Part shown: one piece after another, positions 1,250-30,882 of the stretch | Layout: each line of letters begins with the position of its first letter | How positions within the stretch are numbered: the first letter of the stretch is position 1 | Source of the DNA: a virus | Taxonomy: Duplodnaviria > Caudoviricetes | IMG/VR virus record: IMGVR_UViG_3300042542_001939 | Coordinates: 1 to 53,564 of that record | DNA length: 53,564 bases | Strand: one strand, 5' to 3' | Program-made: the position numbers and the translations under genes | The notes under the pieces: model-generated | What the model saw: only the letters and a program-made list of their open reading frames with translations | What the model was told of the DNA's origin: nothing | Database searches by the model: none

Positions 1250-1654
1250 TTAATCTTTTTTAAGTGTTGAAACCTTATGCCCGACTTTAGTTTCAGTTGG
1301 CTTACCATCTCGGTACAACTGAATAAGAGCCGCTGGGTCATCTTCTTTTCCTTCGATTGTAAAACTTGAATCAGGAACATTTATTTTTCCGTCTGATACA
1401 ACTCGAATTACTTTACCGCTTGCTCGACCACCTGATGAATTCCAAGAAACCATGTCGCCTGATGAGACAGAAAGAGCCTTTTTCATTGCATATGCCATAT
1501 CGCGCATACCCTTTTCAATCATTCTTTTTGCATAACCATTAAGACCTTTAATTCCCTTTTGTTCTACCTGCTCTTTGAGCATCGCATACTCATCGTCTTT
1601 CATAGACTTGAGAGAACCTTTGCGTAATTCTTCGAGAATTTTAATATCTTTCAT
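1250..1654 (-). CDS. Protein with a C-terminal Tudor-like (HVA1/DUF2945-type) domain
   Basis: GDMVSWNSSGG...GKVIRV...DDPA...VGHKVSTL pattern; ATGA overlap with the upstream gene. Confidence 0.65.
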   Translation of the reverse strand: MKDIKILEELRKGSLKSMKDDEYAMLKEQVEQKGIKGLNGYAKRMIEKGMRDMAYAMKKALSVSSGDMVSWNSSGGRASGKVIRVVSDGKINVPDSSFTIEGKEDDPAALIQLYRDGKPTETKVGHKVSTLKKD

Positions 1655-3615: not shown

Positions 3616-3640
3616 GTTCTAAGAGTAGCGGATGGTATTA

Positions 3641-3802
3641 CTACTCGGGTTTAATCTTTTCAAGTGCGGTTTGGGTCATTGCAATCAATTTGAGTTCAGA
3701 CTCTACGGAAGGATTTTCGTCATCCTCCCAATCAGGATTTGATTGAAGCCATTCCCGATAGGTCGCCTGAATGATTTTAAGTTCTTCTGTCCTTTTGCTC
3801 AT
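3641..3802 (-). CDS. Small acidic protein (53 aa), not in the ORF track
   Basis: MSKRTEELKIIQATYREWLQSNPDWEDDENPSVESELKLIAMTQTALEKIKPE; TATAAT lies 5 nt before the ATG (leaderless-type). Confidence 0.65.
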   Translation of the reverse strand: MSKRTEELKIIQATYREWLQSNPDWEDDENPSVESELKLIAMTQTALEKIKPE

Positions 3803-3820
3803 AGTTAATTATACCCTAGT

Positions 3821-6457
3821 TTATTTCTTTCCAACACTTGAGACAGGCTTTTCTCTTGGTGTGCCATCATAAACAAGCCCATCTCCGTCCATATCAATTG
3901 GACCTGATAAAAGATTTTGACCCTCGGCGGTAAGGATTTTCATGTATGGGATGTACTCCCCTCGAAGAAGTTCTTTACCTGACCAAGTAGTGTTTCCCAC
4001 CCCATCTTTGAGTGGTCTGTCTGCGCCTAAAGATGCAAAATCTCTTGGTGTAGGAAAATCATCTTCCCTCATGTCCCTAATATTTCCATTACTGTCTGTC
4101 ATTCGACTAAGAATCTCCCGCCCTTTTACTAAATCTTGAGCATAGAACGCTTTAGATTCTGCGGTGAATTCGGTAAGGTCATTATCAAGGTCATTTTGTC
4201 TTAACTCAAAAGCGCTGTTCAAAGTTTCAACAATGGAAGGTAGTTCATCTCGGTTCCAATCAAAACCACTATTAGCCCAATGTCTTGCTCCATCTTGTAA
4301 GCCAGCATTGAGGGTAATATGAGTCAAACCTTTTGCAATGTAATAATCCTCTGATTGCTGTAAGAATTTACCGCCAAAGCCAAGCCCCCGATATTCTTTA
4401 TCAATTTTTAAGAATTTATGCTCAACGCTCCATGTGCCGTTTTCCTCATCTTTGGAAAAAACGCGAACAATATCTTCCGTACTGACAGCATTACCTTGGT
4501 CATCAATGATTACAGAATTTACTTGTATGTCATTACCTTGAATAAACACTTCACTAACTGATGAAGAAAGAGTAATTGTTTCTCCTTGACGGTCACCGTC
4601 TCTAAACTCAGCGGTTGTTTCGAGACCGTAAACATCTTGAAATGCCTCTTTCAAACTCTCACTTACTTCAGGGTCTTTGAGGGAGCCATAATCATTTTCT
4701 TGCGAAAAGTTTTCTAAAAAGTCGGGTTCTTGGTCAATGTATTCTTCTACTACTTGGTTTCTATAATCATCGTAATTAGCCAACTTGTCCTCTTCAGACA
4801 TTGGCTCACCGTTTTGTTCTTCTAATTGTGTTATTAGATTATTGATTCTATCTTCTACTTCTTCATTGAGATAAGAATCATTGTCAATCATCATCATGGC
4901 TTTATCTCGGTCAATTTCACCGTCGCTACCTTCAAGAGCCTCATCTAATAAGTTGATTGTTGGTCCGCGGTCTTTGAACTCAGAGATGCGTTTTACATCT
5001 TCCTCGCTTCGACCCGTAGCCCATGAGCCATGAGTAGATTGGTCATGCTCTTGGTGCTTAAAAACAGGCTTTAATCCAGCCTGAAAGCGAATAATTTTAA
5101 TCTTTTGAAATGTTGCTGGTACTTGCCAAAACTCAGCAGGAAGCAATGCAACCTTTTGGTCGGCGAACTGTTTGCCTCGATTATTGAAGAAAGAGTTTTG
5201 TCCGCGAGTTTCTGTTGTGAGCGCCGCTCTAGCGTTCTCTGTAAACATTTGAGAGTGATGTACCCAAGCCGCCTCTTCGCCATCTTGACCAAAGCCTCGA
5301 CCAGTGGCAGCGTGTCCAAAGTAATCATGGACTGCACGGAATTTATCGTTTTGTAAATCACTAAAGAGTGGGTGAGCGCCAGTGCTTGCAGTTGCTAATA
5401 CTTTTAGGTTACCTGTGCTTACATCTGCAAACATTTCTTTAGATGTCTTATATGGGTCATCAGCAACGAATTCGACCTTGACCCCAAGGGTCTTAGTCAT
5501 GTAATCAAATTGTTCTTCTACTTCAGATGCTAGGGCTTCATATTCATCGACTGCATCTCTATCCATCTTCGGAAGAGTTTCATAAATATCAGCAATCTTT
5601 GATGCTCGTTCGCGGTTGGCTACGACCTTTGTGTAATCAATTGTGTCGTCAGGTTTTAAGCCTTTTTTGAAAGCATATTCTTTTGCACCATCTCGAGCGC
5701 CTTTGACTGAATCTTCAGGGTATCTATCTCCAGCCCAATTGCCATGAGTAGATTGGTCATGCTCTCCTTCACGATGCTTTTGGACTGTGTAACGCCCTAG
5801 GCAAACATGAGGAAACTTTACAGATTGCCCTCTATTGCCTGAAGGATTTCGTCCACGAAGGCGTCCGTCTCCTCTTCGTTCATCTCCTGAACTGGCTTGG
5901 GAGTCTCCACTAATACGGGCTTTGTTTGTTCGCTCATCGACTTCATCCTCCATGTAGATATACGAGTCATTAACGACATCGTAGATTGCTTTTTGGTCAT
6001 TCTTGAAACCTGCTCGTACACCCTCTGAACGAGAACTGTATCTTCTTGAGACATCTAAGTAAAGTTTTCCTTGGTCTACCCATGCTCCAAAAAAACTGCC
6101 TTTGTTGTCTAACAACTCAGCGTGGTCTTGGACATAATCCTTGATAGCCGTTCTCAAACTCGCCCTAGATGCCTTTAGGGGCTCGAAATCGAGTGTCCTT
6201 TCGGCTCCTGAATCAGATGCCATAAAACCATCTTTAGGCGAGGTTTTAGTTCGCAGGTCGATGGTAAATCCTGGTGTTCTTTTCTCGCTTAACTTGTCAA
6301 TGAGGCTAGTTATAGTTTTGCCTTCAAGTGTTTTAAGGTCATCGCCTACTACTAGGTTAGCCCAACTACCATGAGTTTTTTGGTCATGCGAACCATGTTT
6401 TTCCACAACAAGAGTAAGACCATTGCTTGAATCGTGTTGAAATTTTTCTAGGTTCAT
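3821..6457 (-). CDS. Three-module effector polyprotein: SAM-lyase-like, HDxxGH and GNAT acetyltransferase domains, each preceded by an HDQ tag
   Basis: Start set at ATG 6457 (ATGA overlap). Motifs GFT...GAWVDQGKLYLDVS...QKAIYD; FRAVHDYFGH...GEEAAW...ETRGQNS; KEYRGLGFG...GARHWANSGFDW. Confidence 0.75.
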   Translation of the reverse strand: MNLEKFQHDSSNGLTLVVEKHGSHDQKTHGSWANLVVGDDLKTLEGKTITSLIDKLSEKRTPGFTIDLRTKTSPKDGFMASDSGAERTLDFEPLKASRASLRTAIKDYVQDHAELLDNKGSFFGAWVDQGKLYLDVSRRYSSRSEGVRAGFKNDQKAIYDVVNDSYIYMEDEVDERTNKARISGDSQASSGDERRGDGRLRGRNPSGNRGQSVKFPHVCLGRYTVQKHREGEHDQSTHGNWAGDRYPEDSVKGARDGAKEYAFKKGLKPDDTIDYTKVVANRERASKIADIYETLPKMDRDAVDEYEALASEVEEQFDYMTKTLGVKVEFVADDPYKTSKEMFADVSTGNLKVLATASTGAHPLFSDLQNDKFRAVHDYFGHAATGRGFGQDGEEAAWVHHSQMFTENARAALTTETRGQNSFFNNRGKQFADQKVALLPAEFWQVPATFQKIKIIRFQAGLKPVFKHQEHDQSTHGSWATGRSEEDVKRISEFKDRGPTINLLDEALEGSDGEIDRDKAMMMIDNDSYLNEEVEDRINNLITQLEEQNGEPMSEEDKLANYDDYRNQVVEEYIDQEPDFLENFSQENDYGSLKDPEVSESLKEAFQDVYGLETTAEFRDGDRQGETITLSSSVSEVFIQGNDIQVNSVIIDDQGNAVSTEDIVRVFSKDEENGTWSVEHKFLKIDKEYRGLGFGGKFLQQSEDYYIAKGLTHITLNAGLQDGARHWANSGFDWNRDELPSIVETLNSAFELRQNDLDNDLTEFTAESKAFYAQDLVKGREILSRMTDSNGNIRDMREDDFPTPRDFASLGADRPLKDGVGNTTWSGKELLRGEYIPYMKILTAEGQNLLSGPIDMDGDGLVYDGTPREKPVSSVGKK
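5818..5937 (-). CDS. Overprinted 39-aa acidic peptide nested in the polyprotein linker
   Basis: GGAGGA 8 nt before ATG; MSEQTKPVLVETPKPVQEMNEEETDAFVDEILQAIEGNL. The main frame over the same bases is an R/G/S-rich low-complexity linker. Confidence 0.6.
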   Translation of the reverse strand: MSEQTKPVLVETPKPVQEMNEEETDAFVDEILQAIEGNL

Positions 6458-7179
6458 GACACAAACTCTACATCCCACACCTTGCCGCGCTGACCAACAA
6501 CCTTAAATTTACTATTGCGAGGCATTAAAAATTCAGCCTCAGTAGTGTTTGGAGTCCATCCATACATGGGTTCGTGATAACCCGCAGGAAAGATTCCCTT
6601 AGTACCAGCGGGTAACTTCATGCGAAAGACTAACCCGTCGTAATAAGGTTGAGAGCCACCGAATTGTTGAGCAACTCCAGCATCAATTGTTGTGGATGTA
6701 TAGCCTTTATCCTCATAAGTATCCCCGACTTTAAGATTTTCAAAAAACTTTAATCCGTTGCCTTTAACTCCTCTATACGCAACCAACTCTTCGCTCAATG
6801 CGGGAGCGGTCTCTATTGCTTTATCAAGCGAATTGACTGTTCCCATATATCCGTCATCGCTTATCTGAGGGTCGCGCAAAGCCTCATTCATGTCATAGCC
6901 TCCACGGCTTTCATAAAAACTTATTGCTGTTGAAAACTCAGGATGAGCCAACTCGGTAAATCCCGCGAGGCGTTGGCTAAATAGTTTCTCCATAAAATAA
7001 ACTTCTTTGTCGGTCTCTGACTCAAAAACTTTTACCTCGTCTTTGAACCAATCGGCAAGATTCTCATAGTTACCTGAAGCCCAGTTACCGTGAGTCTTTT
7101 GGTCGTGGCTACCGTGTTTTTCAACATTTTTGGCTCGGGTTATCTCTACATTTTCAAGGATGGTCACGAATCTACTCAT
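6454..7179 (-). CDS. HDQ-tagged ADP-ribosyltransferase (R-S-E clade, VIP2/Alt-like)
   Basis: YDMNEALR, AYRG, DKGYTSTT, EAEFLMPR (R, STT, ExE). Confidence 0.88.
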   Translation of the reverse strand: MSRFVTILENVEITRAKNVEKHGSHDQKTHGNWASGNYENLADWFKDEVKVFESETDKEVYFMEKLFSQRLAGFTELAHPEFSTAISFYESRGGYDMNEALRDPQISDDGYMGTVNSLDKAIETAPALSEELVAYRGVKGNGLKFFENLKVGDTYEDKGYTSTTIDAGVAQQFGGSQPYYDGLVFRMKLPAGTKGIFPAGYHEPMYGWTPNTTEAEFLMPRNSKFKVVGQRGKVWDVEFVS

Positions 7180-8468
7180 TTGTCTAACCTTTGAAAGACT
7201 GCGACATCCATAACATCATCTTTCCCCTCGTTTATTTTTTTATAGCCCATAAATTTTATGGAAGTTTCTCTTGGAAGTAAAACTTCTTTTTCGTTGTCAG
7301 CGGTAGATATATTGTCAAACAAATCTGAAACAGCATTTTTTACATAATCGACTGCTATACCTTTGCCTGTTTTAGATTCACTTGGCAAAATAATTGATGG
7401 TTTGTTGTCCGTTGTTCGAATTATCTGTAAATTTTGTAATACATCTAAACCTTCTTTACTTGTTATATCAACTCTAGTTGTAGACATAAAACCTTTGTCT
7501 GTTAATACATCTCCTTCTTCAAGAGTGTCTAGCACACTTTTATCAAAGACTCGATATAAATTTTTGTCGCCAAAAAGTTCAGGCGCTTCTTCTATAATTT
7601 TATCTATATCAGTGACTCTATTTTCTAGCATTTGACGGAACTGCTGGGCGTTAATGGAATCTTCTTCATTAGGGTTTCTATCAAATCTTCGTAAATAGCC
7701 ATTTATTGCTGCATATCCATCTGCTGTGTAGTCATTCAAACTTCTTACTTCATCGCGAGAAATTCCAACTGGGTCTTTACTTCCATCAGTTTTAATTCCA
7801 TATGTCTCAAAGTATGTGTTTTGGGCGTCCTCACCCTCGGTTTCTTCATTAAAGTTTCCAGTAGCCCAAGAACCATGGGTCTTTTGGTCATGCTGTTGGT
7901 GCTTTTTTACATTGCTCAAACTTTCCCATATTTTTTTTGCCTCATCTTTTGAATTTGGCATTTCGCTTTGTTGTTTCTGCGCACGACTTATTGCCTCCGC
8001 TAAAGTAAATCTTCCAACTTCTTTTAATTTTCCAAATCCTTGAGGACGCACAAAGAATCCTTGATTACCCGACTGGTCGCTGTAAAAATCCGCTTTTGTG
8101 TCCGATAATGGATTTTTAGTCCATGTCAATCCTGTTACATCGTATTCAATAACAGTCTCTCTACCTGTGGCGTAGTCTTGCCAAGTCTCAGGGTCTCCAA
8201 CAAATAATCCTGACTCACTAGATGTACCACCAAGCCTATTTGTTGGTTTGTAATCAGGATTCAACTCAAATTCCTCATCTGCAATATGCCACGCTTTAGG
8301 TCTTAATCCATTTTGTGAAATCGCATTACTAAATTCTTCAAAAGTGTTAAATTGTTTTGCTTGGATTTGTAAGCCTCCAGTAGCCCAACTACCGTGGGAT
8401 GACTGGTCGTGTTCTTGATGTTTGAATACTGGACGAAGCCCAGCCTCAAATTTAATTGTGAGGCTCAT
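7176..8468 (-). CDS. Two-module HDQ-tagged protein: N-terminal ART-like domain plus C-terminal R-S-E ADP-ribosyltransferase
   Basis: C-terminal YAAINGYLR, LYRV, DKGFMSTT, EKEVLLPR; N-terminal module AWH...GLFV...DYA. Confidence 0.82.
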   Translation of the reverse strand: MSLTIKFEAGLRPVFKHQEHDQSSHGSWATGGLQIQAKQFNTFEEFSNAISQNGLRPKAWHIADEEFELNPDYKPTNRLGGTSSESGLFVGDPETWQDYATGRETVIEYDVTGLTWTKNPLSDTKADFYSDQSGNQGFFVRPQGFGKLKEVGRFTLAEAISRAQKQQSEMPNSKDEAKKIWESLSNVKKHQQHDQKTHGSWATGNFNEETEGEDAQNTYFETYGIKTDGSKDPVGISRDEVRSLNDYTADGYAAINGYLRRFDRNPNEEDSINAQQFRQMLENRVTDIDKIIEEAPELFGDKNLYRVFDKSVLDTLEEGDVLTDKGFMSTTRVDITSKEGLDVLQNLQIIRTTDNKPSIILPSESKTGKGIAVDYVKNAVSDLFDNISTADNEKEVLLPRETSIKFMGYKKINEGKDDVMDVAVFQRLDK

Positions 8469-11885: not shown

Positions 11886-12157
11886 CGTTTGTGCCTCTCG
11901 TTCGTCATTGGTTTGGCTATTATGTTTAGTTTTATTCTCATTCTGCTTCGTTCTTTTGGTGTTGTTCCGCTCCATATGCCTTGAACTTGATAATGTAACG
12001 CATAGGTCAGACAATCTTGTTTGACTATGCACCCGCTACAAATCTTTTTAGCCTGACGATTTTCTTCCGTTAAAATGTTTTTCTCGGGAAAAAAATAATC
12101 AGTATCAATCCCCCAGCAACTCGCTCCCACAAATTCCCACGGCATCTTCAATTTCAT
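11882..12157 (-). CDS. whiB: WhiB-family Fe-S transcription factor
   Basis: C...FFPE...AKKICSGCIVKQDCL..AL...GIWSGTT..ER. Confidence 0.92.
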   Translation of the reverse strand: MKLKMPWEFVGASCWGIDTDYFFPEKNILTEENRQAKKICSGCIVKQDCLTYALHYQVQGIWSGTTPKERSRMRIKLNIIAKPMTNERHKR

Positions 12158-12413
12158 CGTCTCCTACTGTAAGGCTGTTAGGGAAAGCATGGCTTAACTT
12201 AGCCAAAACTCTTCCATTACGCCATATTTTTCCTCCACAAACTCCATCAAAATAGTTTGCTCTTGGCAATACCCATTCATCGCACTCTTTCCAAAATGGA
12301 CAAGACTTACAAATTTCTAGCGCTGGTCGAGCAAGGTCAATTTGATGTTGGTCAAAAAGCCAAGGGTCTAAATTGCGACAAGGCGCTTCATCAAGAAAAG
12401 AGATTAAACTCAT
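12105..12413 (-). CDS. whiB: Second, divergent WhiB-family protein
   Basis: APCRNLDPWLF...ICKSCPFWKEC...GVCGG; four Cys in WhiB spacing. Confidence 0.75.
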   Translation of the reverse strand: MSLISFLDEAPCRNLDPWLFDQHQIDLARPALEICKSCPFWKECDEWVLPRANYFDGVCGGKIWRNGRVLAKLSHAFPNSLTVGDDEIEDAVGICGSELLGD

Positions 12414-15070: not shown

Positions 15071-15855
15071 CGATTCCCCCTCTTCTTGTACTTATTTTCC
15101 AAGATTTTCAACTGCTGGTCAAATGAAACGCCGTACTTCTCTGCAAGATTTTGGCAGATGATTTCATTGACCTGCTTTTTAGATTCCTGTGATTCAGGGT
15201 TATTTGAATTCAAAATCCAGTATTGATTGTTAAGCCATTCGGTAACCGCTGTTCTTTCTGTCTTGATTACCTCTGTGTACTTACCTTTTTTGAAGTAAAG
15301 AAACTCACCGCTCTTTGTTGGAGCGTTGGCTTTTTCCTTAGCGATTCGTGCAGCCTTTTTTGCATCTCTCTCAGCCTTGGCTTGAGCCTTAGCAATTTTG
15401 TCCGCTGTAACAATTCTTGATGGACGATTTAAGACCTCGGCTGGAGCGCTTGGGTAACAGATTGTGCAAGCATCTTGACCAGCATCCTCAACGATTGTGT
15501 TCTCATCGTCATTGCTGTACTGGATTAACCAGTTGTAACGGGTTGTATCAAAACAGGTATTGCAATCCATTGAACTGTGAACATGCCCATTGCTGTTGAT
15601 TACCAAGAAGGCTCTTGTCCAAGGGTCTTGGTCGTAGATTGCATCTAACTTATTTATCTCGGATTGAATCGCCACTCTTTGCTTTTTTAATTCAGCAATC
15701 TTGTTTTGGATTTCTTCAACACGGCTTGGATAATGCTTCTCATAAAATGAGATTGAATCTTCTGCATCCAAAATTTTGCTAGTAACTGCCCAGCGCTTAT
15801 CGTGCCAAGATGACAACTCAGTATCAATCTTGACTGCGAACTCTTTGGTGACCAT
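15067..15855 (-). CDS. Hypothetical protein with a Cys/His metal-binding cluster
   Basis: GHVHSSMDCNTC...ACTICYPSAP; RBS GAGAGGAG. Confidence 0.7.
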   Translation of the reverse strand: MVTKEFAVKIDTELSSWHDKRWAVTSKILDAEDSISFYEKHYPSRVEEIQNKIAELKKQRVAIQSEINKLDAIYDQDPWTRAFLVINSNGHVHSSMDCNTCFDTTRYNWLIQYSNDDENTIVEDAGQDACTICYPSAPAEVLNRPSRIVTADKIAKAQAKAERDAKKAARIAKEKANAPTKSGEFLYFKKGKYTEVIKTERTAVTEWLNNQYWILNSNNPESQESKKQVNEIICQNLAEKYGVSFDQQLKILENKYKKRGNR

Positions 15856-15959
15856 TGCATCTCCTCTCGTATTTACAACCCCAGTTTAGCATAGATTCTC
15901 AAATTGGTACAATACGAGTCTGTCGTGTCCTTTGTGACCTCGGTTCAAAGGGTCGAAAA

Positions 15960-17738
15960 GTGCGCTTATCAAGGATTGTCGTAGTTTGTCTCCTCACCTT
16001 TGGCTGGCTCATGATTCCTTCAGACTCAGCATCGGCGAATGGCACTATTGCAGGGACAGTCGATGAAGGTGGGACTTTAACTCTCACCGCTCCACAGGGC
16101 TACAAAATTGGTGGGGTTCAGTTTGCCTCGTATGGAACGCCAGTTAATTATCAAATCGGTTCATGCCATGCGAGTAATTCAGCCGCCATGGTTGAAGCCG
16201 CTATAAGTAACGAATCATTAACAATTAGTGCAACTAACACAGTTTTTGGCGACCCTTGTTCGGGAACGGGGAAACGATTAAGCGTAATTCTTACAATCGA
16301 GCCACAAGTTGTTCAGCGCTCATTAGCCGCGCCAACAAATCTTCAAGGGCAGATAGACGGCTCAACAGCAACAGTTAATTGGAGCGCACCAGTAGAGGGC
16401 AATACTCCAGTTGAGCGATACGCAATTTTTTGGTCTTACGATAATTGGGCAAGTGGATGGGCTATTGCTTCAACGACCCTTAGTGCATCAATCTCGGGAA
16501 TTCCCGAGGGAGCGCAAGTTCAAATAAAAGTCCGTGCAGATAATGATTCATTAGCGATTTATTCAAGTTGGTCAAACGAAATCAATTTACAAGCAACACC
16601 TACTCCGACTCCAACACCCAGCCCCAGCCCTTCTTCAGAGCCGACTCCTTCGCCGTCTCCGACATCTGAACCTTCTCCTTCTCCGAGCGCTGAGCCAACG
16701 CCGACTCCAACTGTTGAACCTTCACCCTCTCCCACACCAACGCCGACCGTAGAACCTCAGCCTCAGCCGACTCCTGAACCAACATCGGAACCATCGCCTT
16801 CACCGTCTCCAAGCCCTCAACCTTCACCAACTCCATCGCCTCAACTTCCATCGAGCCAGGAACCTGAGCCGACCACACCTGAACCCACACCTTCGCCATC
16901 TCCTACCCCAACTCCAGTTCCGTCACCTGAACCAAGTCTCGAACCAAGCCCTGCTCCGAGTCCAGTCGATACCCCTTCGGAAGAACCGATTCCCGAGCCT
17001 CTCCCTGAACCCATTGATGATTCCGAACAGAATTCAAATCCTGAAGAGTCACCTTTAGACGACCCTGATTCTGAGCCAACGCCTCTGCCTTCTGAAGAAC
17101 CTCAAGAGGAACAGCCTGAAATCCCAGTCGATGAGAACCCGTCAAATCAAACAACTGAACAACTACCACTGGAAACCTCCGAAATCATTGATGAACTACT
17201 AACTGAAATTTTAGAAGATGGCAATGTTACACCCGCTGATTTTCAGGAAATATTAGACGCGCTTAACGAAGATGGAGAAATTACTCAAGATGAAGTAAAC
17301 AATTTATCTGAGGCTCTATCGGCTGATGGAAAATTTACTGAAGCAGAGAAAGAACTTGTTGCCGAAGCACTTATTGAATCAGCCGAGGGTGAAGCCGTAA
17401 CTGTTGAATCAATCGCCGAGGCTGGAATTACACTAGAGGATTTACCTCCCGAGCAACCTGTTGAAGTCCGTCAAGATGAAAATGGCAATGAGGTTGTTAT
17501 TACAGCCGAAGTCGCCGTTGCTTTAGAATTACTTACATCGGCATCAGAGATTTTCTCAGCCATCTTTGAAAGTCCAGCACAATTACTCTTTGCTATCGGA
17601 AACCTTGGAGCAGATATGTCTCCTGAAGAACGCAAAGAAGCAAGTGAGACAATTATTGCCGCGACAATCGTTGGCAATATCGCTACAACTACAATTGCCG
17701 CATCAATAGGTGGCATTGGATATAGGAGACCAAATTGA
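15960..17738 (+). CDS. Exported surface protein: SUEL-type lectin domain, FN3 domain, Pro/Ser/Thr stalk, acidic region, hydrophobic C-terminus
   Basis: GTG 15960 starts a signal peptide ending ASA; FASYG...CHA...VFGDPCSGTGKRL; APTNL...WSAP...YSSWS. Confidence 0.75.
   Translation: MRLSRIVVVCLLTFGWLMIPSDSASANGTIAGTVDEGGTLTLTAPQGYKIGGVQFASYGTPVNYQIGSCHASNSAAMVEAAISNESLTISATNTVFGDPCSGTGKRLSVILTIEPQVVQRSLAAPTNLQGQIDGSTATVNWSAPVEGNTPVERYAIFWSYDNWASGWAIASTTLSASISGIPEGAQVQIKVRADNDSLAIYSSWSNEINLQATPTPTPTPSPSPSSEPTPSPSPTSEPSPSPSAEPTPTPTVEPSPSPTPTPTVEPQPQPTPEPTSEPSPSPSPSPQPSPTPSPQLPSSQEPEPTTPEPTPSPSPTPTPVPSPEPSLEPSPAPSPVDTPSEEPIPEPLPEPIDDSEQNSNPEESPLDDPDSEPTPLPSEEPQEEQPEIPVDENPSNQTTEQLPLETSEIIDELLTEILEDGNVTPADFQEILDALNEDGEITQDEVNNLSEALSADGKFTEAEKELVAEALIESAEGEAVTVESIAEAGITLEDLPPEQPVEVRQDENGNEVVITAEVAVALELLTSASEIFSAIFESPAQLLFAIGNLGADMSPEERKEASETIIAATIVGNIATTTIAASIGGIGYRRPN
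16597..17010 (+). repeat. Coding Pro-Thr/Pro-Ser low-complexity repeats
   Basis: TPTPTPTPSPSPSSEPTPSPSP... in the surface protein. Confidence 0.9.
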
Positions 17739-17902
17739 AAAACTTTTTGAATGACATTATCGGACAAATATGGACGATGCTAGGAATGTTTGTTGCTTGG
17801 ATTCTTGTTGATGGTATTGCTAAAAATATCGTTGGCTATGCAATCCTAATTACTTTTGGCGTTTGGGTTTTGACTTACCCTCTTCGTCGTCAGAAGGATT
17901 AA
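17735..17902 (+). CDS. Small two-TM membrane protein (55 aa), not in the ORF track
   Basis: AGGAG then TTG overlapping the upstream stop; MKNFLNDIIGQIWTMLGMFVAWILVDG... Confidence 0.7.
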   Translation: MKNFLNDIIGQIWTMLGMFVAWILVDGIAKNIVGYAILITFGVWVLTYPLRRQKD

Positions 17903-18140
17903 ACTCCTCCGACTTAGCAAAGGGACTAAATGCTCCGTTGATTTCATCGAGAGTTAGTTTTCCGTCGTCAAGATATTCACGGGCAAGTCGCTCTGCAACT
18001 GAGGCGGCAGCCAATAGCCCTGCCATTGATAGGGCTACCCAAGTCTCAACTCCCATGATTGCTCCAGCACCTAGAGTGCCAAGGGCGCCGACAATAAATA
18101 CCGCAACCATGCGACTCATAATGTTTTGGAACTTTTTCAT
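17850..18140 (-). CDS. Two-TM membrane protein
   Basis: Two hydrophobic segments, then LDDGKLTLDEIN. Confidence 0.7.
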   Translation of the reverse strand: MKKFQNIMSRMVAVFIVGALGTLGAGAIMGVETWVALSMAGLLAAASVAERLAREYLDDGKLTLDEINGAFSPFAKSEEFNPSDDEEGKSKPKRQK

Positions 18141-18658
18141 GCGACAAGTCTAGCGGATACAATTTCCCGCTTTCTTGGCACTCTCGCTTTCTTAGATTTA
18201 GTCATCACCCGAACTCTCTTTTCATTGAAGGCGTTTGCCAATTTATCGGCGTCGGGCTTTCCAAGATACCTCGTAGTAAATTGAAGTAGGACATCGGCGA
18301 ACTCTGCCCCATGGGATTCCCTGCCCCAAGTTATGTGATGGGCAATCTCATGAAGGATGATGAACTTATTTCGACCAGTTTTGTTTAATCGAATCAATCG
18401 AACAACTTCCCAATTTCGGTTTCTCATCGTGGCATGGTTTCCGCTACCAGCCTCGACGATTATCTTTGATGGGTAGACGCTCGCCCAAAATTCGTACTGC
18501 TTATGAAGTTTCTTAGTTTTCTGATGCGACAGAACTTGATTGACGAATTTCTGTGCCTCTTTAATTGTCATGACCTCGCCCTTGTCATAGAAGCCAGCAA
18601 GCCTCTGAGCGTCGTATAGGCGCTGTCTTTGACCGTCCCTAGGTTTTGTACCTGCCAT
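18137..18658 (-). CDS. SprT-like zincin metalloprotease
   Basis: ILHEIAHH...SHGAEF. Confidence 0.75.
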   Translation of the reverse strand: MAGTKPRDGQRQRLYDAQRLAGFYDKGEVMTIKEAQKFVNQVLSHQKTKKLHKQYEFWASVYPSKIIVEAGSGNHATMRNRNWEVVRLIRLNKTGRNKFIILHEIAHHITWGRESHGAEFADVLLQFTTRYLGKPDADKLANAFNEKRVRVMTKSKKARVPRKREIVSARLVA

Positions 18659-18855
18659 GGGTTTTCCTTTCTCTCAAGACCCATTATACCAAATGGGGGT
18701 TTAGAAAGAATCCAAAACTTGAGTGACCTTGGCTCAACTTTTCCCCGACACGCCACGATTAGGTGCCTGAAACTGTCTTTGTTGATTCGATATACAACCC
18801 CAGTTGTGTTAGACTCGGTATGTCAGAAAGAACATCGTCAAAATTGGGAGGCATC

Positions 18856-19218
18856 ATGAGTCTTGATTACAAAGGATTTGAGTGGGGAAACAGAATCACT
18901 TCTGATGAAGATTCAGTCGATAGATTCCTTCACGAAGGTTTAGTTGCTCAAGCACCATCTGTAGGCGATTTACATAGCGCCGCTGAATGGTTGGCAACTT
19001 ATGGCGCTGAAAATGCCGAGGATGCTCAGGGCTGGGCGAATGTCGTCGCCTTCTTGATTCTGACTGCGGAATCCAAAGAAAACCGTTCAGCGCTTGCAAA
19101 GGCAAAAAAGAAGTTTGCCGAGGCTAACGGAATTCCCGTGTCGCAGGTAAGGATTAAAAAAGAGGCTGAGATTATCCGTGAGGGTTTGGCTTTAATTCCT
19201 GACAAGATAGATAACTAA
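18856..19218 (+). CDS. Hypothetical protein
   Basis: Start moved to ATG 18856 after GGAGG. Confidence 0.65.
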   Translation: MSLDYKGFEWGNRITSDEDSVDRFLHEGLVAQAPSVGDLHSAAEWLATYGAENAEDAQGWANVVAFLILTAESKENRSALAKAKKKFAEANGIPVSQVRIKKEAEIIREGLALIPDKIDN

Positions 19219-19266
19219 CCCCAGTTGTGTTATACTGGATATACAACCTAGAGAGAGGTCAAATAA

Positions 19267-19620
19267 ATGAGTCAGGTAAAAGTAACTTGGAAGGCTTTCG
19301 GCGATAAGCCTGAGATTGGTCGCTTCGTAAGTTCTGTGGAATTTGAAACAGAGTTTGCAGTCGAGGACGCAAACAAGTTTTGTGAAGTTATTTTCCATGC
19401 AACAAACACATACTCAGGAAACTTATGGCAGATTATTCAGCCATTACTTTCTGAGACTCGCACTCACACATCAATCTCAATCGGTGACGAAATTGAAATC
19501 AACGGTCAGGTTTACATCTGCGCTGATTTTGGATTCGAGAAGATTGAAGATGTTGAAATCAGAAATTTCCCTGATGGAACAATTTGGTCTGTTATGAACA
19601 AAGAGGCGGTGGCAAAATGA
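19267..19620 (+). CDS. Hypothetical protein
   Basis: RBS AGAGAGAGG, upstream TATACT promoter. Confidence 0.7.
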   Translation: MSQVKVTWKAFGDKPEIGRFVSSVEFETEFAVEDANKFCEVIFHATNTYSGNLWQIIQPLLSETRTHTSISIGDEIEINGQVYICADFGFEKIEDVEIRNFPDGTIWSVMNKEAVAK

Positions 19621-19931
19621 CTCAAGAATCAATTTCATGGGCAGAGTTAGCAGAATTAACTCATGCCACACAGGTAGAGAAGTTTAATTTCTGTATGTGT
19701 GAGGACAACGAAGGCAACGAGAATCCTTATTCAGATTGCCCAACTCAAAAGCCTTATGACCGCCTAGGCGCAATTATCGCTTATGAATCAGGCGAACTGG
19801 ATGGAGAGCAAACTGTTGAATTGTTCCAGCACCTAGTTGATTCAGGGCTTGCATGGCAACTCCAAGGTCACTACGGGCGCACAGCAATGGCACTTATCGA
19901 GCAAGGTCTAGTAGGAAAGAGAGAGAACTAA
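19617..19931 (+). CDS. Conserved phage hypothetical protein
   Basis: ATGA overlap; YESGEL...LFQHLVDSGLAWQLQGHYGR. Confidence 0.7.
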   Translation: MTQESISWAELAELTHATQVEKFNFCMCEDNEGNENPYSDCPTQKPYDRLGAIIAYESGELDGEQTVELFQHLVDSGLAWQLQGHYGRTAMALIEQGLVGKREN

Positions 19932-20512
19932 TGAGCGAAACAATTACAAAGTGTTTTGAGTGTGAGACTGTTATCAATGAAGATGATGGTTTTGCATTTT
20001 CCGATATGAATGAGCAGACATATTGCTATGACTGCGAATCATCAGACCTTGAGTACGCATCAACTCTTCTCAAGGTTCACGGTAATCACGAGGCTGAGAA
20101 GGTTATCTTTGGTGACGCCTTTTCTCGTGGCGATGATGGAGAATCTCCTGACTGGTTTCATGAACTCTTTGGTGAAACTAAAGGTCGCCTATGGGAAAAG
20201 ACTGATGCTTGGCGTGGTCACTACGAAACGGTCAAGAACTTTGAAGGCATGACTGTTTTAGCATCGGGCTGGACAACTGGATGGGCTGATGAATCTCATC
20301 AACGCAAGGCTTTATTCAATGAGTTTGCTGAGCATCTATGCGAGAACTTCTATGGCGCTGTTGCTCCTACATACTTTTTGACAGAGCCAACATCTAATGT
20401 GTTTTCTGCCAGCATCGATTTCTTTTGTGCTACAAAAGATGTTGAAAAGGTAACTGCATGGTTAGAAGAGATTGGCTATCCAGTTGAGAAGTTGAAAGAA
20501 TGGTTATCGTAA
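19931..20512 (+). CDS. Hypothetical protein with N-terminal CxxC-CxxC
   Basis: TAATG coupling; CFEC...CYDC; TDAWRGHY. Confidence 0.7.
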   Translation: MSETITKCFECETVINEDDGFAFSDMNEQTYCYDCESSDLEYASTLLKVHGNHEAEKVIFGDAFSRGDDGESPDWFHELFGETKGRLWEKTDAWRGHYETVKNFEGMTVLASGWTTGWADESHQRKALFNEFAEHLCENFYGAVAPTYFLTEPTSNVFSASIDFFCATKDVEKVTAWLEEIGYPVEKLKEWLS

Positions 20513-20562
20513 CAATAGAAATAGATTATACTGGGGTTTAATATAGAGAGAGAAGGTAAGTC

Positions 20563-21489
20563 ATGGAACACGCAGTAATTGTTCATTCGCCCGAATATGC
20601 GAACTGGATATTCGATAAGTCGCACCCCACACAGGGACGACGATTTCTGCATGGTCGCAATCAGATTATGTTGGAGGCTCAAAAGCGCTTTCTGAATGTA
20701 GACGAGATTGAACCTCAGATGCCACACACCGATGACCTGTTGCTTATGCACGACCCAATCTATGTCCATGATGTAACTATCAAGGGCGAATCAACTGAAT
20801 GGGACGGTCAGCGTCATGACCTTGGAGACCTAGCAAAGTTATTCGTGGGCGGAACTCTCACCGCTCTCGATACATTGCTTAACAAGAAAACAACTCTTGC
20901 TATCCATTTACCCGGAGCAAAGCATCACGCGATGCGTGATTACTCTTCAGGGTTTTGTGTCTTTGCTGACTTTGCAATCGCCGCGACTAAGGCAACTGAG
21001 GTCGGCGAGCGCGTTGCAATCTTTGATGTTGATGCACACCATGGTGACGGTACTGAAGTATTGCTCAAGGCAAACAAAAATGTCATGACATTCTCGGTTC
21101 ATCAATATGGAATTTTTCCCGGCACGGGTCTTGTATCCGATTACAAAAATCGCGCCTATAACTTTCCACTTACTCATGGCTCAGGCGATGATGAATTGAT
21201 GACTGCAACGGAATCATTTCTTGAAGCCTGTGAAGAATTCGAGCCTACGATTATTTTTGTGGCGTGTGGCGCCGATGGTCTAAAAGATGACCCATTGAGC
21301 CAACTCGAATACACCCCAGCGGGTTACTGGAGGTCGCTACGAGCGGTAAGGGAGCAATTCCCTAATATGCCCATGCTCCTAGGTGGAGCAGGTGGCTATC
21401 TGCCCGATACGGGAACTCCCGAGGTGTGGCTCAATGCCATGCTTGCTCTTACGGCGGTTCAAACCGAGGTTGTTATACCCAAGTTGTAG
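20563..21489 (+). CDS. Zn-dependent histone deacetylase family protein (AcuC-like)
   Basis: HHA, SGFC, DVDAHHGDG, SVHQ, FPGTG, GADGLKDDPL, GAGGY. Confidence 0.92.
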   Translation: MEHAVIVHSPEYANWIFDKSHPTQGRRFLHGRNQIMLEAQKRFLNVDEIEPQMPHTDDLLLMHDPIYVHDVTIKGESTEWDGQRHDLGDLAKLFVGGTLTALDTLLNKKTTLAIHLPGAKHHAMRDYSSGFCVFADFAIAATKATEVGERVAIFDVDAHHGDGTEVLLKANKNVMTFSVHQYGIFPGTGLVSDYKNRAYNFPLTHGSGDDELMTATESFLEACEEFEPTIIFVACGADGLKDDPLSQLEYTPAGYWRSLRAVREQFPNMPMLLGGAGGYLPDTGTPEVWLNAMLALTAVQTEVVIPKL

Positions 21490-21498
21490 ACTTCGCAG

Positions 21499-22059
21499 AT
21501 GACCACAATCATCGCTATCCAGCATAAGGACAAAGTAACCTTTGGAGCAGATTCGCAAGTAACGGCTGGAAACGGTCGAACTTCTAATCATCCATCGATG
21601 GTAAAAATTACTCAACGAGGTGACTTTATTATTGCTGGAAGCGGTGAGTGTGCGCCCTGTGACATCGCCCAACATATTTGGAATCCACCTAGACCAACTG
21701 TTAGTGATTACAAAGACCTTTATCACTTCATGATTGCAAAGGTAGTTCCATCATTGAAGGCTTGTTTCAAGGAGCAAGAATATAAATGGAATGAAGATGA
21801 TGATGAAACAAAATTCGCGTTTTTGATTTCTATTGATGGAGAGGTCTTTGAACTCAGCGATGATATGTCAGTCTCGCTTGATTCTAAAGGTTTCTACGGT
21901 GTCGGTTCAGGCTCTAGTTATGCAATAGGCGCACTTCACGCGGGTGTGAATATGGAGAAGGCTCTTGATATTGCCAGTGCTAATGATGCCTACACATCAG
22001 CCCCATTTATCTATTACACACAAACTAAAAGGAAAGTTGCATCACCTAGGAATAAATAG
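21499..22059 (+). CDS. Ntn-hydrolase (proteasome beta/HslV-like) peptidase
   Basis: N-terminal M-T-T, GADSQVT, VGSGSSYAIGAL, DAYTS. Confidence 0.85.
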   Translation: MTTIIAIQHKDKVTFGADSQVTAGNGRTSNHPSMVKITQRGDFIIAGSGECAPCDIAQHIWNPPRPTVSDYKDLYHFMIAKVVPSLKACFKEQEYKWNEDDDETKFAFLISIDGEVFELSDDMSVSLDSKGFYGVGSGSSYAIGALHAGVNMEKALDIASANDAYTSAPFIYYTQTKRKVASPRNK

Positions 22060-27670: not shown

Positions 27671-28858
27671 TTATTCTACCTCAGTTGTACACGCTTCGAT
27701 TGGTAACTGTAATAATAGAGCAACATCTTTCCAGCCATAGATAGTGTTAGCCCATTCATTCAAATCCTCGGTATGAACTCTCATAGAGTGTTCGCCTACT
27801 TTGATGGTCGAGCGTCCTACTGGAATATGCCCTGGCTTCGACTTTCCCCCTGCAAGAATCTCGGCTACCTCTTCAGGGGTAAACCCTGTGCCTTTGAATG
27901 AGGTTGAGGTTAGTAGTTTATTCAACTCAGATGGGTCATAGGTTGCTAGGTCGCTAGTGCGGTTATCAACAATAAGAATCTTAATCTCTTCAACATCATC
28001 AACATCAATCCAGTGAACGGCTATCTTTTCCCACCCTAATTGAACTGAGGCTTGATAGGTATGGTTTCCTGAGAGTATGTGCTTTGTCCTTCTATTGGCA
28101 ACAATAGGTCGGTATTGACCCATATATGTCAGCGAATCAATTATTGCTCCTATGTCACCCTCTCTAGGGTTTAGTGGATGCACCATAACTTCGTTGATAG
28201 GTACGGTTTCAACATCATCTTCGTTTGTATCGTTTCTCTCACCGTTAGGTTCAGGTTCAACTGGCTTACGCTCAGGAAATCCAAGGCGCTCTTTGATTGC
28301 TTTGATGGCTTTCTGTTTTGTCGGTGCCTCGCTGTAGAGTTGTTCTTTCCATGCTTTGTAAGCATCCATCTCGACTGTAAACTTCCAAGCGCTAATCTTT
28401 ACTTCAGGGTCGCTAGGCAAAGGCTTAGAATCCCCGATTGAACTCTTATCGTTTCCATTGGTTAATCTATCTAAAGTCTCAACCTCAGATTGAGTAAATC
28501 CTGTTCCATCCAACTCAGGCAAGGCTTGAAGAAGGCTCTTTAGAAGTGGCTCGTTGTATCCCGCTAAGTCAGTCAAGCGATTATCGGCTAGAACTATTTT
28601 CTTGGCAGTCTGCTCATCCACATCAATGTAGGTAACTTTAATTTTCTTCCAGCCTATTTTTTTTGCCGCTTTGTAAGTGTGATTACCAGCCAGTATGTAA
28701 TTTGTTCCGTACTGCACCACGATAGGGCGATACTGCCCATGAATTTTTAGACTCGTGGCAATAGCATCTATGTCCCCACGCCTCGGATTGGTTGGATAAC
28801 CTTCAAGCGTGTTCAAGGCAACTGTAGCGACCTGACCTACTTTGATGTTGGCTTTCAT
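27671..28858 (-). CDS. Protein with two tandem ParB/Srx N-terminal domains
   Basis: Two copies of NPRxGDIxAI..SL...GQYRPIV...ILxGNHTY...DNR..DLA. Confidence 0.85.
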   Translation of the reverse strand: MKANIKVGQVATVALNTLEGYPTNPRRGDIDAIATSLKIHGQYRPIVVQYGTNYILAGNHTYKAAKKIGWKKIKVTYIDVDEQTAKKIVLADNRLTDLAGYNEPLLKSLLQALPELDGTGFTQSEVETLDRLTNGNDKSSIGDSKPLPSDPEVKISAWKFTVEMDAYKAWKEQLYSEAPTKQKAIKAIKERLGFPERKPVEPEPNGERNDTNEDDVETVPINEVMVHPLNPREGDIGAIIDSLTYMGQYRPIVANRRTKHILSGNHTYQASVQLGWEKIAVHWIDVDDVEEIKILIVDNRTSDLATYDPSELNKLLTSTSFKGTGFTPEEVAEILAGGKSKPGHIPVGRSTIKVGEHSMRVHTEDLNEWANTIYGWKDVALLLQLPIEACTTEVE

Positions 28859-29505
28859 TTAATAAACAACCACGCTTCAAAGTTATAGAACTTCCAAAAA
28901 CAAGCACCCTTATCAAAACCTGCTTCAACTGCCATAGCGATGTTTTCCTCGGCTGTCTTGGTTTTCATCAACGGGCGTAAATCTCGTTCTTTGCTCATTA
29001 TTTCATTCGAAGTAAAGTGCTTATTTTTGAAGTCATAGTAAGCAAAATTAAAAACATTTTCTAACTCACCGTCCTCCTCATGACACTTTTCTGCCCAAAC
29101 GAAACCGCCACCCTCTGCTAACTCTTCATACACTAAATTCAAAATAGTTTGCCTATCTCCCAGTGGGAGGAACTGCAAAGTGAAAATTGAAAGAATTAAA
29201 GATGGCGTCTTGCCAAAGTTATGAATTGAGCGTAAGTCTTTGCGAACGAACTGAACATTGTCATGGCTCTCAGGTAAAAGATTGCTTGAGATGTCAATGC
29301 CTAATTTGTCACCCTCGAAAGGTATGCTTTCAAGGAGCGCCCCTGTTGAGCATCCTAAATCAACAACTGAGTAATCTTCTTTGACAAAGAAAGTTGATAA
29401 GTCACGGATAGAATCGGCTAATAAATGGTAGTTTGGTATTGACTTGGCAATATGGTCATCAAAGTTATCTATCGTGTCAAAAGAAAATGGTTTAGTAGAA
29501 GTCAT
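28855..29505 (-). CDS. cmoA: CmoA-like carboxy-SAM synthase / SAM-dependent enzyme
   Basis: FDDHIAKSIPNY, DLGCSTG, FTLQFL, AEK, AGF, YNF match CmoA hallmarks; start at ATG 29505. Confidence 0.8.
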   Translation of the reverse strand: MTSTKPFSFDTIDNFDDHIAKSIPNYHLLADSIRDLSTFFVKEDYSVVDLGCSTGALLESIPFEGDKLGIDISSNLLPESHDNVQFVRKDLRSIHNFGKTPSLILSIFTLQFLPLGDRQTILNLVYEELAEGGGFVWAEKCHEEDGELENVFNFAYYDFKNKHFTSNEIMSKERDLRPLMKTKTAEENIAMAVEAGFDKGACFWKFYNFEAWLFIK

Positions 29506-30583
29506 GAAGTTTTCTTCCAATTGCTTCCACAACGGGGATACTGATTGTTCGTCCGCACCGCTCATATCGTTCGGCATCTGAAACCTTCTTTCCATCATCG
29601 TAGAACTCTGTCCATCCATCGGGAAAACCTTGCAATCTTTCACACTCAAGCGGTGTTAGTTTTCTTATTGAAACTGATTCTTCATCTCCGATAACAACTC
29701 CATGCCTATCTTGAGCGGTTACTGTGTACATAGGGTCGTTATCGTCTTTAATCATGCGTCCGTTTGGACTCTTATTGAATCGAGCAACATCCATAATAGG
29801 TTTTACAAAAGGAACATTGTGTCCGCCTGTACCCATATTGGCTGTGAGAGTCGGAACTCCTTTTGACTTATATGTACGGAAATAACCTCGACGCCATTGA
29901 GCCACTTCGAACTCAGGTGCATCATCCATCACATAAGGTCGAGATGCTCCCCCTTTGTAATAATGGGCATCGAGCGTTGGAGAAATGTTGGAGAAAAGCC
30001 CCTGCCTTTTTCCTTGTTTACCTTGGTACGGTTCATCATTCTCTCCACCTGTGATTCCGATAGGAAATACTTTTGGTCGGGGTTCTCCTCTAAGATGTCC
30101 GATAAGGAAAATCCTTTCTCGGTGCTGTGGGACTCCGAAATTTTGGCTGTCAAGCAACTCCCATTGACAGTCATACCCCATCCCATCCAAGACTTCCAAG
30201 ATGATTCCGAAGGTTCTTCCTCCGTCGTGATTGAGGAGTCCTTTGACATTTTCAAAGAGAAGGTACGGTATTCCTTTATCCCGAGCGAGTCGAAACATTT
30301 CAAAAGCGAGAGTGCCTCTTGTGTCCTCCAAAGAGAATCCCGTTCGTTTCCCTGCAATGCTAAAAGTGGCACAAGGAAATCCTCCAACAAGGAGGTCTGC
30401 GTTTGGAATGTCTCCAGCGGAAATAGTTCTAATGTCTCTTCCATCGGGTTGTTCTCCGAAATTTCGGGCATATATTTTCCTCGGTCTTTCTAGCCATTCG
30501 TTAGCCCATACGCACTCATGACCAGTGTTTTCAAGTCCTAAGCGAAAGGCGCCGATACCTGCAAAAAGTTCAATAAACTTCAT
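29492..30583 (-). CDS. C5-cytosine DNA methyltransferase family protein, probably a carboxymethyltransferase
   Basis: FAGIG, GFPC, ENVKG, QHRERIF, RLQGFPD; motif X reads CGRT instead of GN[AS]. Confidence 0.9.
   Translation of the reverse strand: MKFIELFAGIGAFRLGLENTGHECVWANEWLERPRKIYARNFGEQPDGRDIRTISAGDIPNADLLVGGFPCATFSIAGKRTGFSLEDTRGTLAFEMFRLARDKGIPYLLFENVKGLLNHDGGRTFGIILEVLDGMGYDCQWELLDSQNFGVPQHRERIFLIGHLRGEPRPKVFPIGITGGENDEPYQGKQGKRQGLFSNISPTLDAHYYKGGASRPYVMDDAPEFEVAQWRRGYFRTYKSKGVPTLTANMGTGGHNVPFVKPIMDVARFNKSPNGRMIKDDNDPMYTVTAQDRHGVVIGDEESVSIRKLTPLECERLQGFPDGWTEFYDDGKKVSDAERYERCGRTISIPVVEAIGRKLHDFY
29929..30471 (-). CDS. Alternative-frame ORF nested in the methyltransferase (M.EcoHK31I beta-like)
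   Basis: 180 codons open; W..WGM...G...SLSDILEENPDQKYFLS. Confidence 0.6.
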   Translation of the reverse strand: MPEISENNPMEETLELFPLETFQTQTSLLEDFLVPLLALQGNERDSLWRTQEALSLLKCFDSLGIKEYRTFSLKMSKDSSITTEEEPSESSWKSWMGWGMTVNGSCLTAKISESHSTEKGFSLSDILEENPDQKYFLSESQVERMMNRTKVNKEKGRGFSPTFLQRSMPIITKGEHLDLM

Positions 30584-30882
30584 TACAAAGTTTGTTTCGC
30601 TGGTCGCCCTCGGTATCGAATAGGTTTTCCGTTTGCATCAAAATGCGGTGTGCGGTCAATGTCATCCTTGATGATTTTGTAAATCAACTGCTCTGACACT
30701 CCCATAGATTCAGCAATCTCACGATAGGTGATGCGTTGTTTACGAAGGCGCAGAATCAACTGCTTACGACGCCTACCTAAATCTTGAATCTGTGCTTGGT
30801 GTGTGCGGATGGCATCTGTAAGGATTTTGACTTCATCAAGACCTTTGCCGTCTAACTCTGTTGCTTCCATTACTGTACTCAT
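30583..30882 (-). CDS. HTH DNA-binding protein
   Basis: ITYREIAESMGVSEQLIYKII; C-terminal GRP. Confidence 0.8.
   Translation of the reverse strand: MSTVMEATELDGKGLDEVKILTDAIRTHQAQIQDLGRRRKQLILRLRKQRITYREIAESMGVSEQLIYKIIKDDIDRTPHFDANGKPIRYRGRPAKQTL

Follow-up and report, generated by a model that had tools for sequence, protein, structure and literature searches.

Cyanophage S-B43 encodes a CmoA (SpCmoA) which makes carboxy-S-adenosylmethionine (carboxy-SAM, Cx-SAM) from S-adenosylmethionine (SAM) and prephenate, with a kcat higher than that of E. coli CmoA, and a homologue of DNA cytosine-C5 methyltransferases (C5 MTases), CmoX, which uses carboxy-SAM to make 5-carboxymethylcytosine (5cxmC) (Yang et al., Nat Commun 2025, PMC12783734). 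In the 1.9 Å crystal structure of this enzyme (SpCmoX, 8YF3), Arg350 replaces Asn304 of M.HhaI and contacts the carboxymethyl group of Cx-SAM. Wild-type SpCmoX accepts only Cx-SAM, not SAM, and the R350N mutant accepts neither; according to the Discussion of the same paper, the Arg mirrors the engineered substitution N374K of M.MpeI. Thousands of phage CmoX/CmoA pairs were predicted there, including 5,615 CmoX candidates filtered by the literal motif SPPC, and ParBc neighbours, whose role is left unexplained, were reported near CmoX in 1,660 contigs (PMC12783734). This is the only description of a natural 5cxmC/CmoX system found in a full-text literature search. Here we analysed a whole linear IMG/VR virus record of 53,564 bp, IMGVR_UViG_3300042542_001939 (the window; GC 43.3%, CheckV completeness estimate 88%), which carries adjoining homologues of both genes. 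They most likely constitute a module for cytosine carboxymethylation of the CmoA-CmoX kind in an uncultured siphovirus-like phage, a function predicted from homology and conservation.

The CmoX and CmoA homologues

Four minus-strand genes are packed without gaps in the window, and lie between the replication/recombination genes and the terminase, a position from which the DNA would be modified before packaging. The features of this run are the following.

30583..30882 (-): small helix-turn-helix (HTH) protein, 99 aa, first gene of the HTH-CmoX-CmoA-ParB run (Pfam HTH_23, 5e-08)
29492..30583 (-): CmoX-type DNA cytosine-C5 carboxymethyltransferase homologue, 363 aa (Pfam, TIGRFAM and PDB matches)
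29549..29551 (-): codon CGA (tcg on the plus strand) of Arg345, the predicted carboxylate-binding residue of the CmoX homologue
28855..29505 (-): CmoA homologue, predicted carboxy-SAM synthase, 216 aa, start ATG at 29505-29503
27671..28858 (-): protein with two ParB_N (ParB/Srx-fold) domains, 395 aa (Pfam ParB_N, 1.1e-11; phrog_8071, 9.9e-166, in two stretches)

The stop of the HTH gene and the start of the CmoX gene share 1 nt, the CmoX and CmoA genes overlap by 14 nt (29492-29505), and the CmoA stop overlaps the ParB gene by 4 nt. Through these overlaps the four genes would be translationally coupled. The CmoA open reading frame (ORF) as called runs over 28855..29649 (-), its first codon being a TTG at 29649. 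Translation is taken to start at the ATG at 29505, since the N-terminus that it gives, MTSTKPFSF, aligns with SpCmoA and with the N-termini of all family members. The HTH gene is kept upstream of CmoX in most related loci. Promoter-like sites between 27300 and 31300 were at shuffle level (5, against a shuffle mean of 5.6), and the six weak terminator-like sites in the same interval (shuffle mean 3.1, sd 1.8) do not define the transcript ends.

The CmoX homologue matches the families of C5 MTases (Pfam DNA_methylase, 7.7e-71; TIGR00675 dcm, 2.2e-78) and, among solved structures, M.HhaI (9.8e-46) and SpCmoX (8yf3, 1.5e-11). It possesses motifs I (FAGIG), IV (GGFPC71-A72-TFS), VI (ENV) and X (YE341-R342-C-G344-R345). 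Residues 340-352, with Arg345 inside motif X, read YERCGRTISIPVV. In the phmmer alignment against the PDB, with positions counted along the alignment, G344-R345-T346-I347 corresponds to G303-N304-S305-V306 of M.HhaI. Aligned with MAFFT, ERCGRTI falls on ERVGRMV of SpCmoX, so that R345 is the equivalent of R350, and Cys71 in GGFPC aligns with the PC of SpCmoX. The catalytic domain is modelled with a predicted local distance difference test score (pLDDT) above 85, and Foldseek places HhaI first (6.5e-22, query template modelling score, TMq, 0.55) and 8YF3 nineteenth (1.1e-14, TMq 0.50) among the relatives of the model. The model confirms the C5-MTase fold and is silent on cofactor or target sequence. 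No target specificity is proposed, because the target recognition domain (TRD, approximately residues 178-296) has a pLDDT below 50 and no solved relative.

The best NCBIfam match of the CmoA homologue is CmoA TIGR00740 (2.2e-28, positions 22-235 of 239), and it also matches phrog_4752 (5.3e-63). Among solved structures it comes closest to E. coli CmoA (4gek, 2.5e-18) and H. influenzae YecO, and it shares 39% identity with the assayed SpCmoA. An AlphaFold model of the protein (pLDDT 80.3) retrieved E. coli CmoA or H. influenzae YecO at all of the Foldseek ranks 1-6, with template modelling (TM) scores of 0.72-0.74.

On the grounds of homology, the CmoA homologue would convert SAM and prephenate, the latter from the host shikimate pathway, to carboxy-SAM. 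The C5-MTase homologue, judged by homology and by its conserved Arg, would flip out the target cytosine; Cys71 would attack C6, and the carboxymethyl group of carboxy-SAM would pass to C5. Arg345, the counterpart of M.HhaI Asn304, is predicted to bind the carboxylate of the cofactor, with the small Ala72 after the catalytic Cys in place of the usual Gln. The product would be 5cxmC within a target motif of phage DNA, the probable final modification, which may shield the DNA from host restriction enzymes.

A preliminary description of this DNA had claimed overlapping CmoA-like and C5 MTase genes, which the 14-nt overlap on the minus strand bears out, and an Arg codon at 29549-29551 in motif X where C5 MTases carry Asn, which indeed aligns with HhaI N304. 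Its proposal that carboxy-SAM made by CmoA and an Asn-to-Arg MTase together yield 5cxmC is supported by the homology to CmoA and CmoX of S-B43, and the precedent that it invoked, M.MpeI N374K, is confirmed by PMC12783734.

Family conservation and the multi-site signature

A search of IMG/VR with the MTase returned 130 relatives, of which the best 80 were examined (68-98% identity to the window MTase). Both R345 and motif IV, GGFPCATFS, are invariant in 81/81 sequences (the window and the 80 loci), none of which has an internal stop (0/81). A methyltransferase ORF lies directly downstream of the MTase in all 80 loci, and in 79 of them it is 48-92% identical to the window CmoA. The exception is L084, whose downstream ORF is 22.6% identical to the window CmoA and is seen by Pfam as a generic methyltransferase only. 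The start/stop overlap between CmoX and CmoA is the same as in the window in 79 of the 80 loci, and could not be scored in one; ParB directly abuts CmoA in 43. The members of the module differ in their identity to the window, with CmoX at 87% and CmoA at 62% in loci L011-L016, and with ParB at 90-93% and CmoA at 66% in L018-L019. This mosaicism suggests that alleles are exchanged within the module, since CmoA is far more diverged than CmoX in L011-L016.

The MTase was also searched against 1.84 billion cluster representatives, and motifs IV and X were read in the best 150. The residue equivalent to N304 is N in 117 of these, R in seven, and D, M and L in one each, with 23 unaligned. All six R-type representatives with a visible motif IV combine PCATFS with YER.GR (HKR.GR in one of them). 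Ala after the catalytic Cys was found in none of the 117 N-type representatives, which carry PCQ or, in a few cases, PCP, together with Y[KR]..GN in motif X. Motif E-R-x-G-R and the absence of Gln after the Cys are also common to SpCmoX (SPPCSAFS in motif IV, TERVGRMV in motif X), S-CRM01, PaBG (SPPCKSFS, FERLGRSV) and TurkishDelight gp123 (SPPCAAFS, WERIGRAV), all of which adjoin CmoA. From these alignments, the natural cofactor switch appears to involve more than the single Asn, which fits the dead R350N mutant of SpCmoX.

For the phylogeny, 60 sequences were taken by rank from the 108 representatives with lengths of 300-450 aa, and fragments and fusions were left out. In a quick IQ-TREE analysis of 74 sequences, the window family and the R-type representatives form a clade with 100% support among N-type Dcm enzymes, and the SpCmoX group sits on a separate long branch. 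A constrained tree which holds the 17 R-type rows together scored 40.5 log-likelihood units above the free quick tree (approximately unbiased test, p-AU 0.94), and still 16.0 units above it after removal of the ten signature columns (p-AU 0.70), in both cases with long branches. A single origin of the R-type enzymes is compatible with, and tentatively a little favoured by, this quick search with its long branches. A convergent origin of the Arg in the HhaI-like lineage had been expected from the N-type nearest relatives; the single-clade tree fits better, and convergence is not claimed.

More tentatively, and with doubt prevailing somewhat over confidence, the GFPC-A/YER.GR enzymes may be a distinct CmoX subclass which the SPPC filter misses, abundant in uncultured, probably freshwater actinophages, with bare 5cxmC as the final virion modification and with the co-varying set of residues as a code for the cofactor switch. 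If true, this code would combine a small residue next after the catalytic Cys with the replacement of Lys by Glu and of Asn by Arg, and with one additional Arg. It would explain the inactivation of SpCmoX by the single R350N reversal, and would provide a recipe for converting HhaI-like methyltransferases. The combination of PC-A and E-R-x-G-R on a HhaI-like scaffold would be of practical use in engineering carboxymethyltransferases for methylome sequencing. SPPC is not required of CmoX candidates, and the spread of 5cxmC is thus probably underestimated.

Different residues were found in the C5 MTases of Staphylococcus phage vB-SscS-F1 (L003:5488-6495) and of the SPbeta-like L089 (5669-6667), which also adjoin CmoA. 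In both, Gly stands where HhaI has N304 (YDVVGGVI) and PCQ is retained, and the F1 MTase also adjoins a ligase similar to that of S-B43, SpCmoY (35% identity). These Gly-type enzymes may represent a different way of accommodating Cx-SAM.

Predicted end product and competing explanations

Searches with the SpCmoY protein and with PF00733 (Asn_synthase) gave no matches in the window, with the PF00733 control positive in 14/14 genomes, and tblastn with the ligases of SpCmoY, PaBG and Staphylococcus phage F1 type detected none in the window or in the 80 loci. Likewise, neither the window nor 78 of the 80 relatives yielded Amidoligase/GATase genes of the type of Arthrobacter phage Ottawa. As no CmoY-type ligase was found, bare 5cxmC is probably the end product in the window phage. 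Such a ligase-less arrangement predicts virion DNA with free carboxylates, which would be useful as a natural substrate for examining the handling of 5cxmC by restriction enzymes, polymerases and nanopore basecallers. The two other relatives, L073 (5-2396) and L076 (98-3154), harbour Amidoligase_2 (PF12224, 8.4e-35) and GATase_6 genes 1-3.5 kb upstream of CmoX, and in both of them CmoX-CmoA is also preceded by WhiB and by ParB_N genes of the single-domain type. Their Amidoligase_2/GATase genes are a candidate for an alternative hypermodification module. The same pair is present in Arthrobacter phage Ottawa (gp65-66), where no CmoA match was found.

Several observations weigh against the proposed module and its bare product. 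The record is 88% complete, so that a ligase could lie in the missing part, and about 20 small ORFs of the window were outside the scans. The MTase is far closer to M.HhaI than to SpCmoX in both sequence and fold, and its motif IV is GFPC, in place of the SPPC which defines CmoX candidates in PMC12783734; the SPPC criterion serves as a bioinformatic filter and is not demanded by the mechanism. The CmoA homologue reaches 99.6 bits with CmoA TIGR00740, below the equivalog cut-off of 193.3, and 71.3 with NF011995, for which the cut-off is 285. Moreover, Arg199 of E. coli CmoA, the sole residue contacting the Cx-SAM carboxylate there (PMC4482062), corresponds to Glu173 in the window CmoA, whose active site is unlike the E. 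coli pattern, and the model is of low confidence in this region (residues 154-171, pLDDT below 50). An invariant Arg177 lies four residues, or one helical turn, beyond Glu173 at the position of E. coli Glu203. E. coli CmoA has K198-R199...E203, whereas the window CmoA shares its swapped K-E...R arrangement with SpCmoA, and therefore appears to follow the validated phage pattern.

One alternative is that 5cxmC is only an intermediate, converted further, for example to an amide, by an enzyme or ligase unlike CmoY that is encoded by an unannotated ORF, by the missing 12% or so of the genome, or by the host. Virions of S-B43 yielded the glycine amide alone and no 5cxmC, and several ligase clusters with unknown amine substrates have been reported (PMC12783734); the Amidoligase_2 and GATase genes of two of the 80 relatives and the incomplete record point the same way. 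Nevertheless, we consider further conversion unlikely in view of the ligase searches of the window and of 78 of the 80 relatives. The Amidoligase_2/GATase pair need not belong to the pathway, as Ottawa carries it with no CmoA match, and systems which lack a ligase are common, with 2,251 ligases for 5,615 CmoX contigs (PMC12783734).

The MTase could also be an ordinary SAM-dependent enzyme making 5-methylcytosine, next to a CmoA with a separate task, such as draining host SAM against SAM-dependent defences or feeding the uridine 5-oxyacetic acid (cmo5U) modification of host tRNA. This is very improbable, as N stands at the position in question in 117 of 127 aligned close representatives, yet the Arg is invariant in the family and co-varies with the loss of Gln after the catalytic Cys. 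The overlap with the downstream methyltransferase ORF is kept in 79 of the 80 loci, SpCmoX, which has this Arg too, does not accept SAM (PMC12783734), and no CmoB was found among the ORFs scanned. The enzyme is nevertheless HhaI-like Dcm in overall sequence and fold; SAM depletion by CmoA is raised as an open question in the Discussion of PMC12783734, and Erwinia jumbo phages, Alcaligenes phage Afa-NA1 and MT835562 possess CmoA with no C5 MTase within 5 kb. That the CmoA homologue makes a SAM derivative other than carboxy-SAM, which the MTase transfers, would agree with its score below the equivalog threshold and with the Glu at the Arg199 position. However, SpCmoA has the same K-E...R pattern and makes Cx-SAM with a higher kcat than the E. 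coli enzyme (PMC12783734), and an anionic group would suit the Arg of the transferase pocket; we give this explanation hardly any credence.

Host, surrounding genes and known systems

The window encodes a WhiB-like transcription factor (12105-12413, -; Pfam, 1e-06), and a WhiB is also present in relative L076 (5.9e-16). According to PMC10202952, WhiB occurs exclusively in Actinobacteriota and can serve to indicate actinophages. The large terminase subunit of the window (TerL) is 53-55% identical to terminases of Arthrobacter phages. The host is probably actinobacterial, as suggested by the WhiB gene and the Arthrobacter-phage-like terminase. Isolated phages of 'Ca. Nanopelagicales' have a GC content of 44.8% (PMC10202952), similar to the 43% of the window, and the host may belong to that particular group. 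No tRNA genes were found in the window. The sole match in 185,579 species genomes was in an alphaproteobacterial bin of metagenome-assembled origin (L085, JADGDA010000399.1), an assignment which was rejected as too weak and in conflict with the WhiB and terminase signal. This match is a 2.2-kb low-coverage contig with an 88%-identical MTase fragment, probably of phage origin and binned there by mistake.

Counterparts of the double-ParB protein, at 38-40% identity, lie upstream of the terminase in Arthrobacter phages with no CmoA match. Because the protein is present in those phages, it was rejected as a dedicated partner of CmoX and is treated as the product of a backbone gene of the phage lineage located upstream of the terminase. 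In Arthrobacter phage Laroye (L086, 1-9000), three genes of ParB type lie together with a PAPS-reductase-like and a methyltransferase gene between the terminase and the end of the genome, a position which looks like a hot spot of DNA-modification genes in this lineage.

The preliminary description had further paired the module with a SAM-lyase-like cargo, which did not hold up: no family so named, and no SAM hydrolase family, was detected among about 60 ORFs of the window in PHROGs and/or Pfam scans, in which some ORFs had no match at all. Ten of the ORFs with no match were rescanned at E ≤ 0.05, again with no SAM-lyase family. A plus-strand cargo block is present at 15855-22059 inside the otherwise minus-strand genome, with the following genes.

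within 15855-22059 (+): SUEL-lectin-domain protein, 627 aa (6.9e-07, below the cut-off)
19584-19931 (+): DUF7417 protein
20563-21489 (+): histone-deacetylase-family protein (1e-55)
21499-22059 (+): HslV-like peptidase (phrog_1040, 7e-30)

Two adjacent proteins at 6454-8468 (-) match ADP-ribosyltransferase PHROGs weakly to moderately (3.7e-13 and 1.3e-07). They are encoded immediately downstream of the head-morphogenesis gene, and may be virion-delivered ADP-ribosyltransferases. Two large proteins of 654 and 885 aa are encoded at 1651-6478 (-). The first matches phrog_2859 (5.8e-263), and its C-terminal 150 residues or so have further matches to families with RNA ligase, DNA methyltransferase and head protease annotations.

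Similar to S-B43, the window phage possesses a CmoA homologue adjoining a C5-MTase homologue, an Arg at the HhaI-N304 position within E-R-x-G-R, a residue other than Gln after the catalytic Cys, and a ParB-domain neighbour. The proteins of the two phages are 39% (CmoA) and 33% (CmoX) identical. In contrast to S-B43, motif IV is GFPC-A and not SPPC-S, and CmoX is followed by CmoA with an overlap of 14 nt and with no CmoY ligase between them. The genome is siphovirus-like and of about 54 kb, whereas S-B43 is a T4-like cyanophage of 214 kb. The TRD of the window MTase is unrelated to that of SpCmoX, and the GC specificity of SpCmoX is therefore not transferable to it. The predicted end products also differ, being 5cxmC in the window phage and a glycine amide in S-B43.

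Streptomyces phage TurkishDelight (MW291017.1), a cultured actinophage, encodes at gp121-125 two ParB-like proteins, a CmoX-type MTase, a GATase-ligase and a CmoA-like protein. Its ParB-like genes adjoin the MTase, which carries WERIGRAVPP and Ala after the catalytic Cys, and the CmoA-like gene. The MTase is however of the SPPC type, it and the CmoA-like protein are 27.5% and 25.9% identical to their window counterparts, and the GATase-domain ligase lies between the two genes. No experimental study of this module was found in the literature search. The host group, which had been put forward as part of the novelty of the window pair, is consequently not new. The main text of PMC12783734 does not mention actinobacterial hosts.

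M.HhaI and the GFPCQ-type Dcm enzymes are the best match of the catalytic domain and share motifs I, IV (GFPC), VI (ENV) and VIII (RER) with it. Compared with M.HhaI, the window MTase has Ala for Q82, Glu for K300, Arg for Q301 and Arg for N304, its TRD is not alignable, and it is linked to CmoA. In M.MpeI N374K, a basic residue at the Asn of motif X likewise switches the cofactor to carboxy-SAM (PMC12783734); this enzyme is engineered, CpG-specific and altered by a single Lys substitution, whereas the natural enzymes carry further co-varying changes. E. coli CmoA (PDB 4GEK/4IWN) resembles the window CmoA in fold (TM 0.72-0.74) and sequence (2.5e-18). It serves tRNA cmo5U via CmoB and has Arg199 as ligand, in contrast to the Glu of the window CmoA, and it lacks the invariant R177, four residues after that Glu, which the window CmoA has in common with SpCmoA. 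In Erwinia phage pEa_SNUABM_17 (L091), Alcaligenes phage Afa-NA1 (L092) and MT835562 (L004), hmmsearch detected no C5 MTase in the 5 kb flanking the CmoA homologue on each side, and Cx-SAM may feed a different acceptor in these phages.

The chemistry had been said to be reported in other phages, in agreement with PMC12783734, and the window pair is a further member of that published system, with no new mechanism or chemistry. The late-2025 modification system is extended by it to a large uncultured phage family, with 130 IMG/VR relatives that probably infect low-GC actinobacteria. Modestly new with respect to the described systems are the GFPC-A subclass, which would escape a filter for literal SPPC, the ligase-less arrangement of an abundant family of uncultured phages, and the wider signature of the enzyme.

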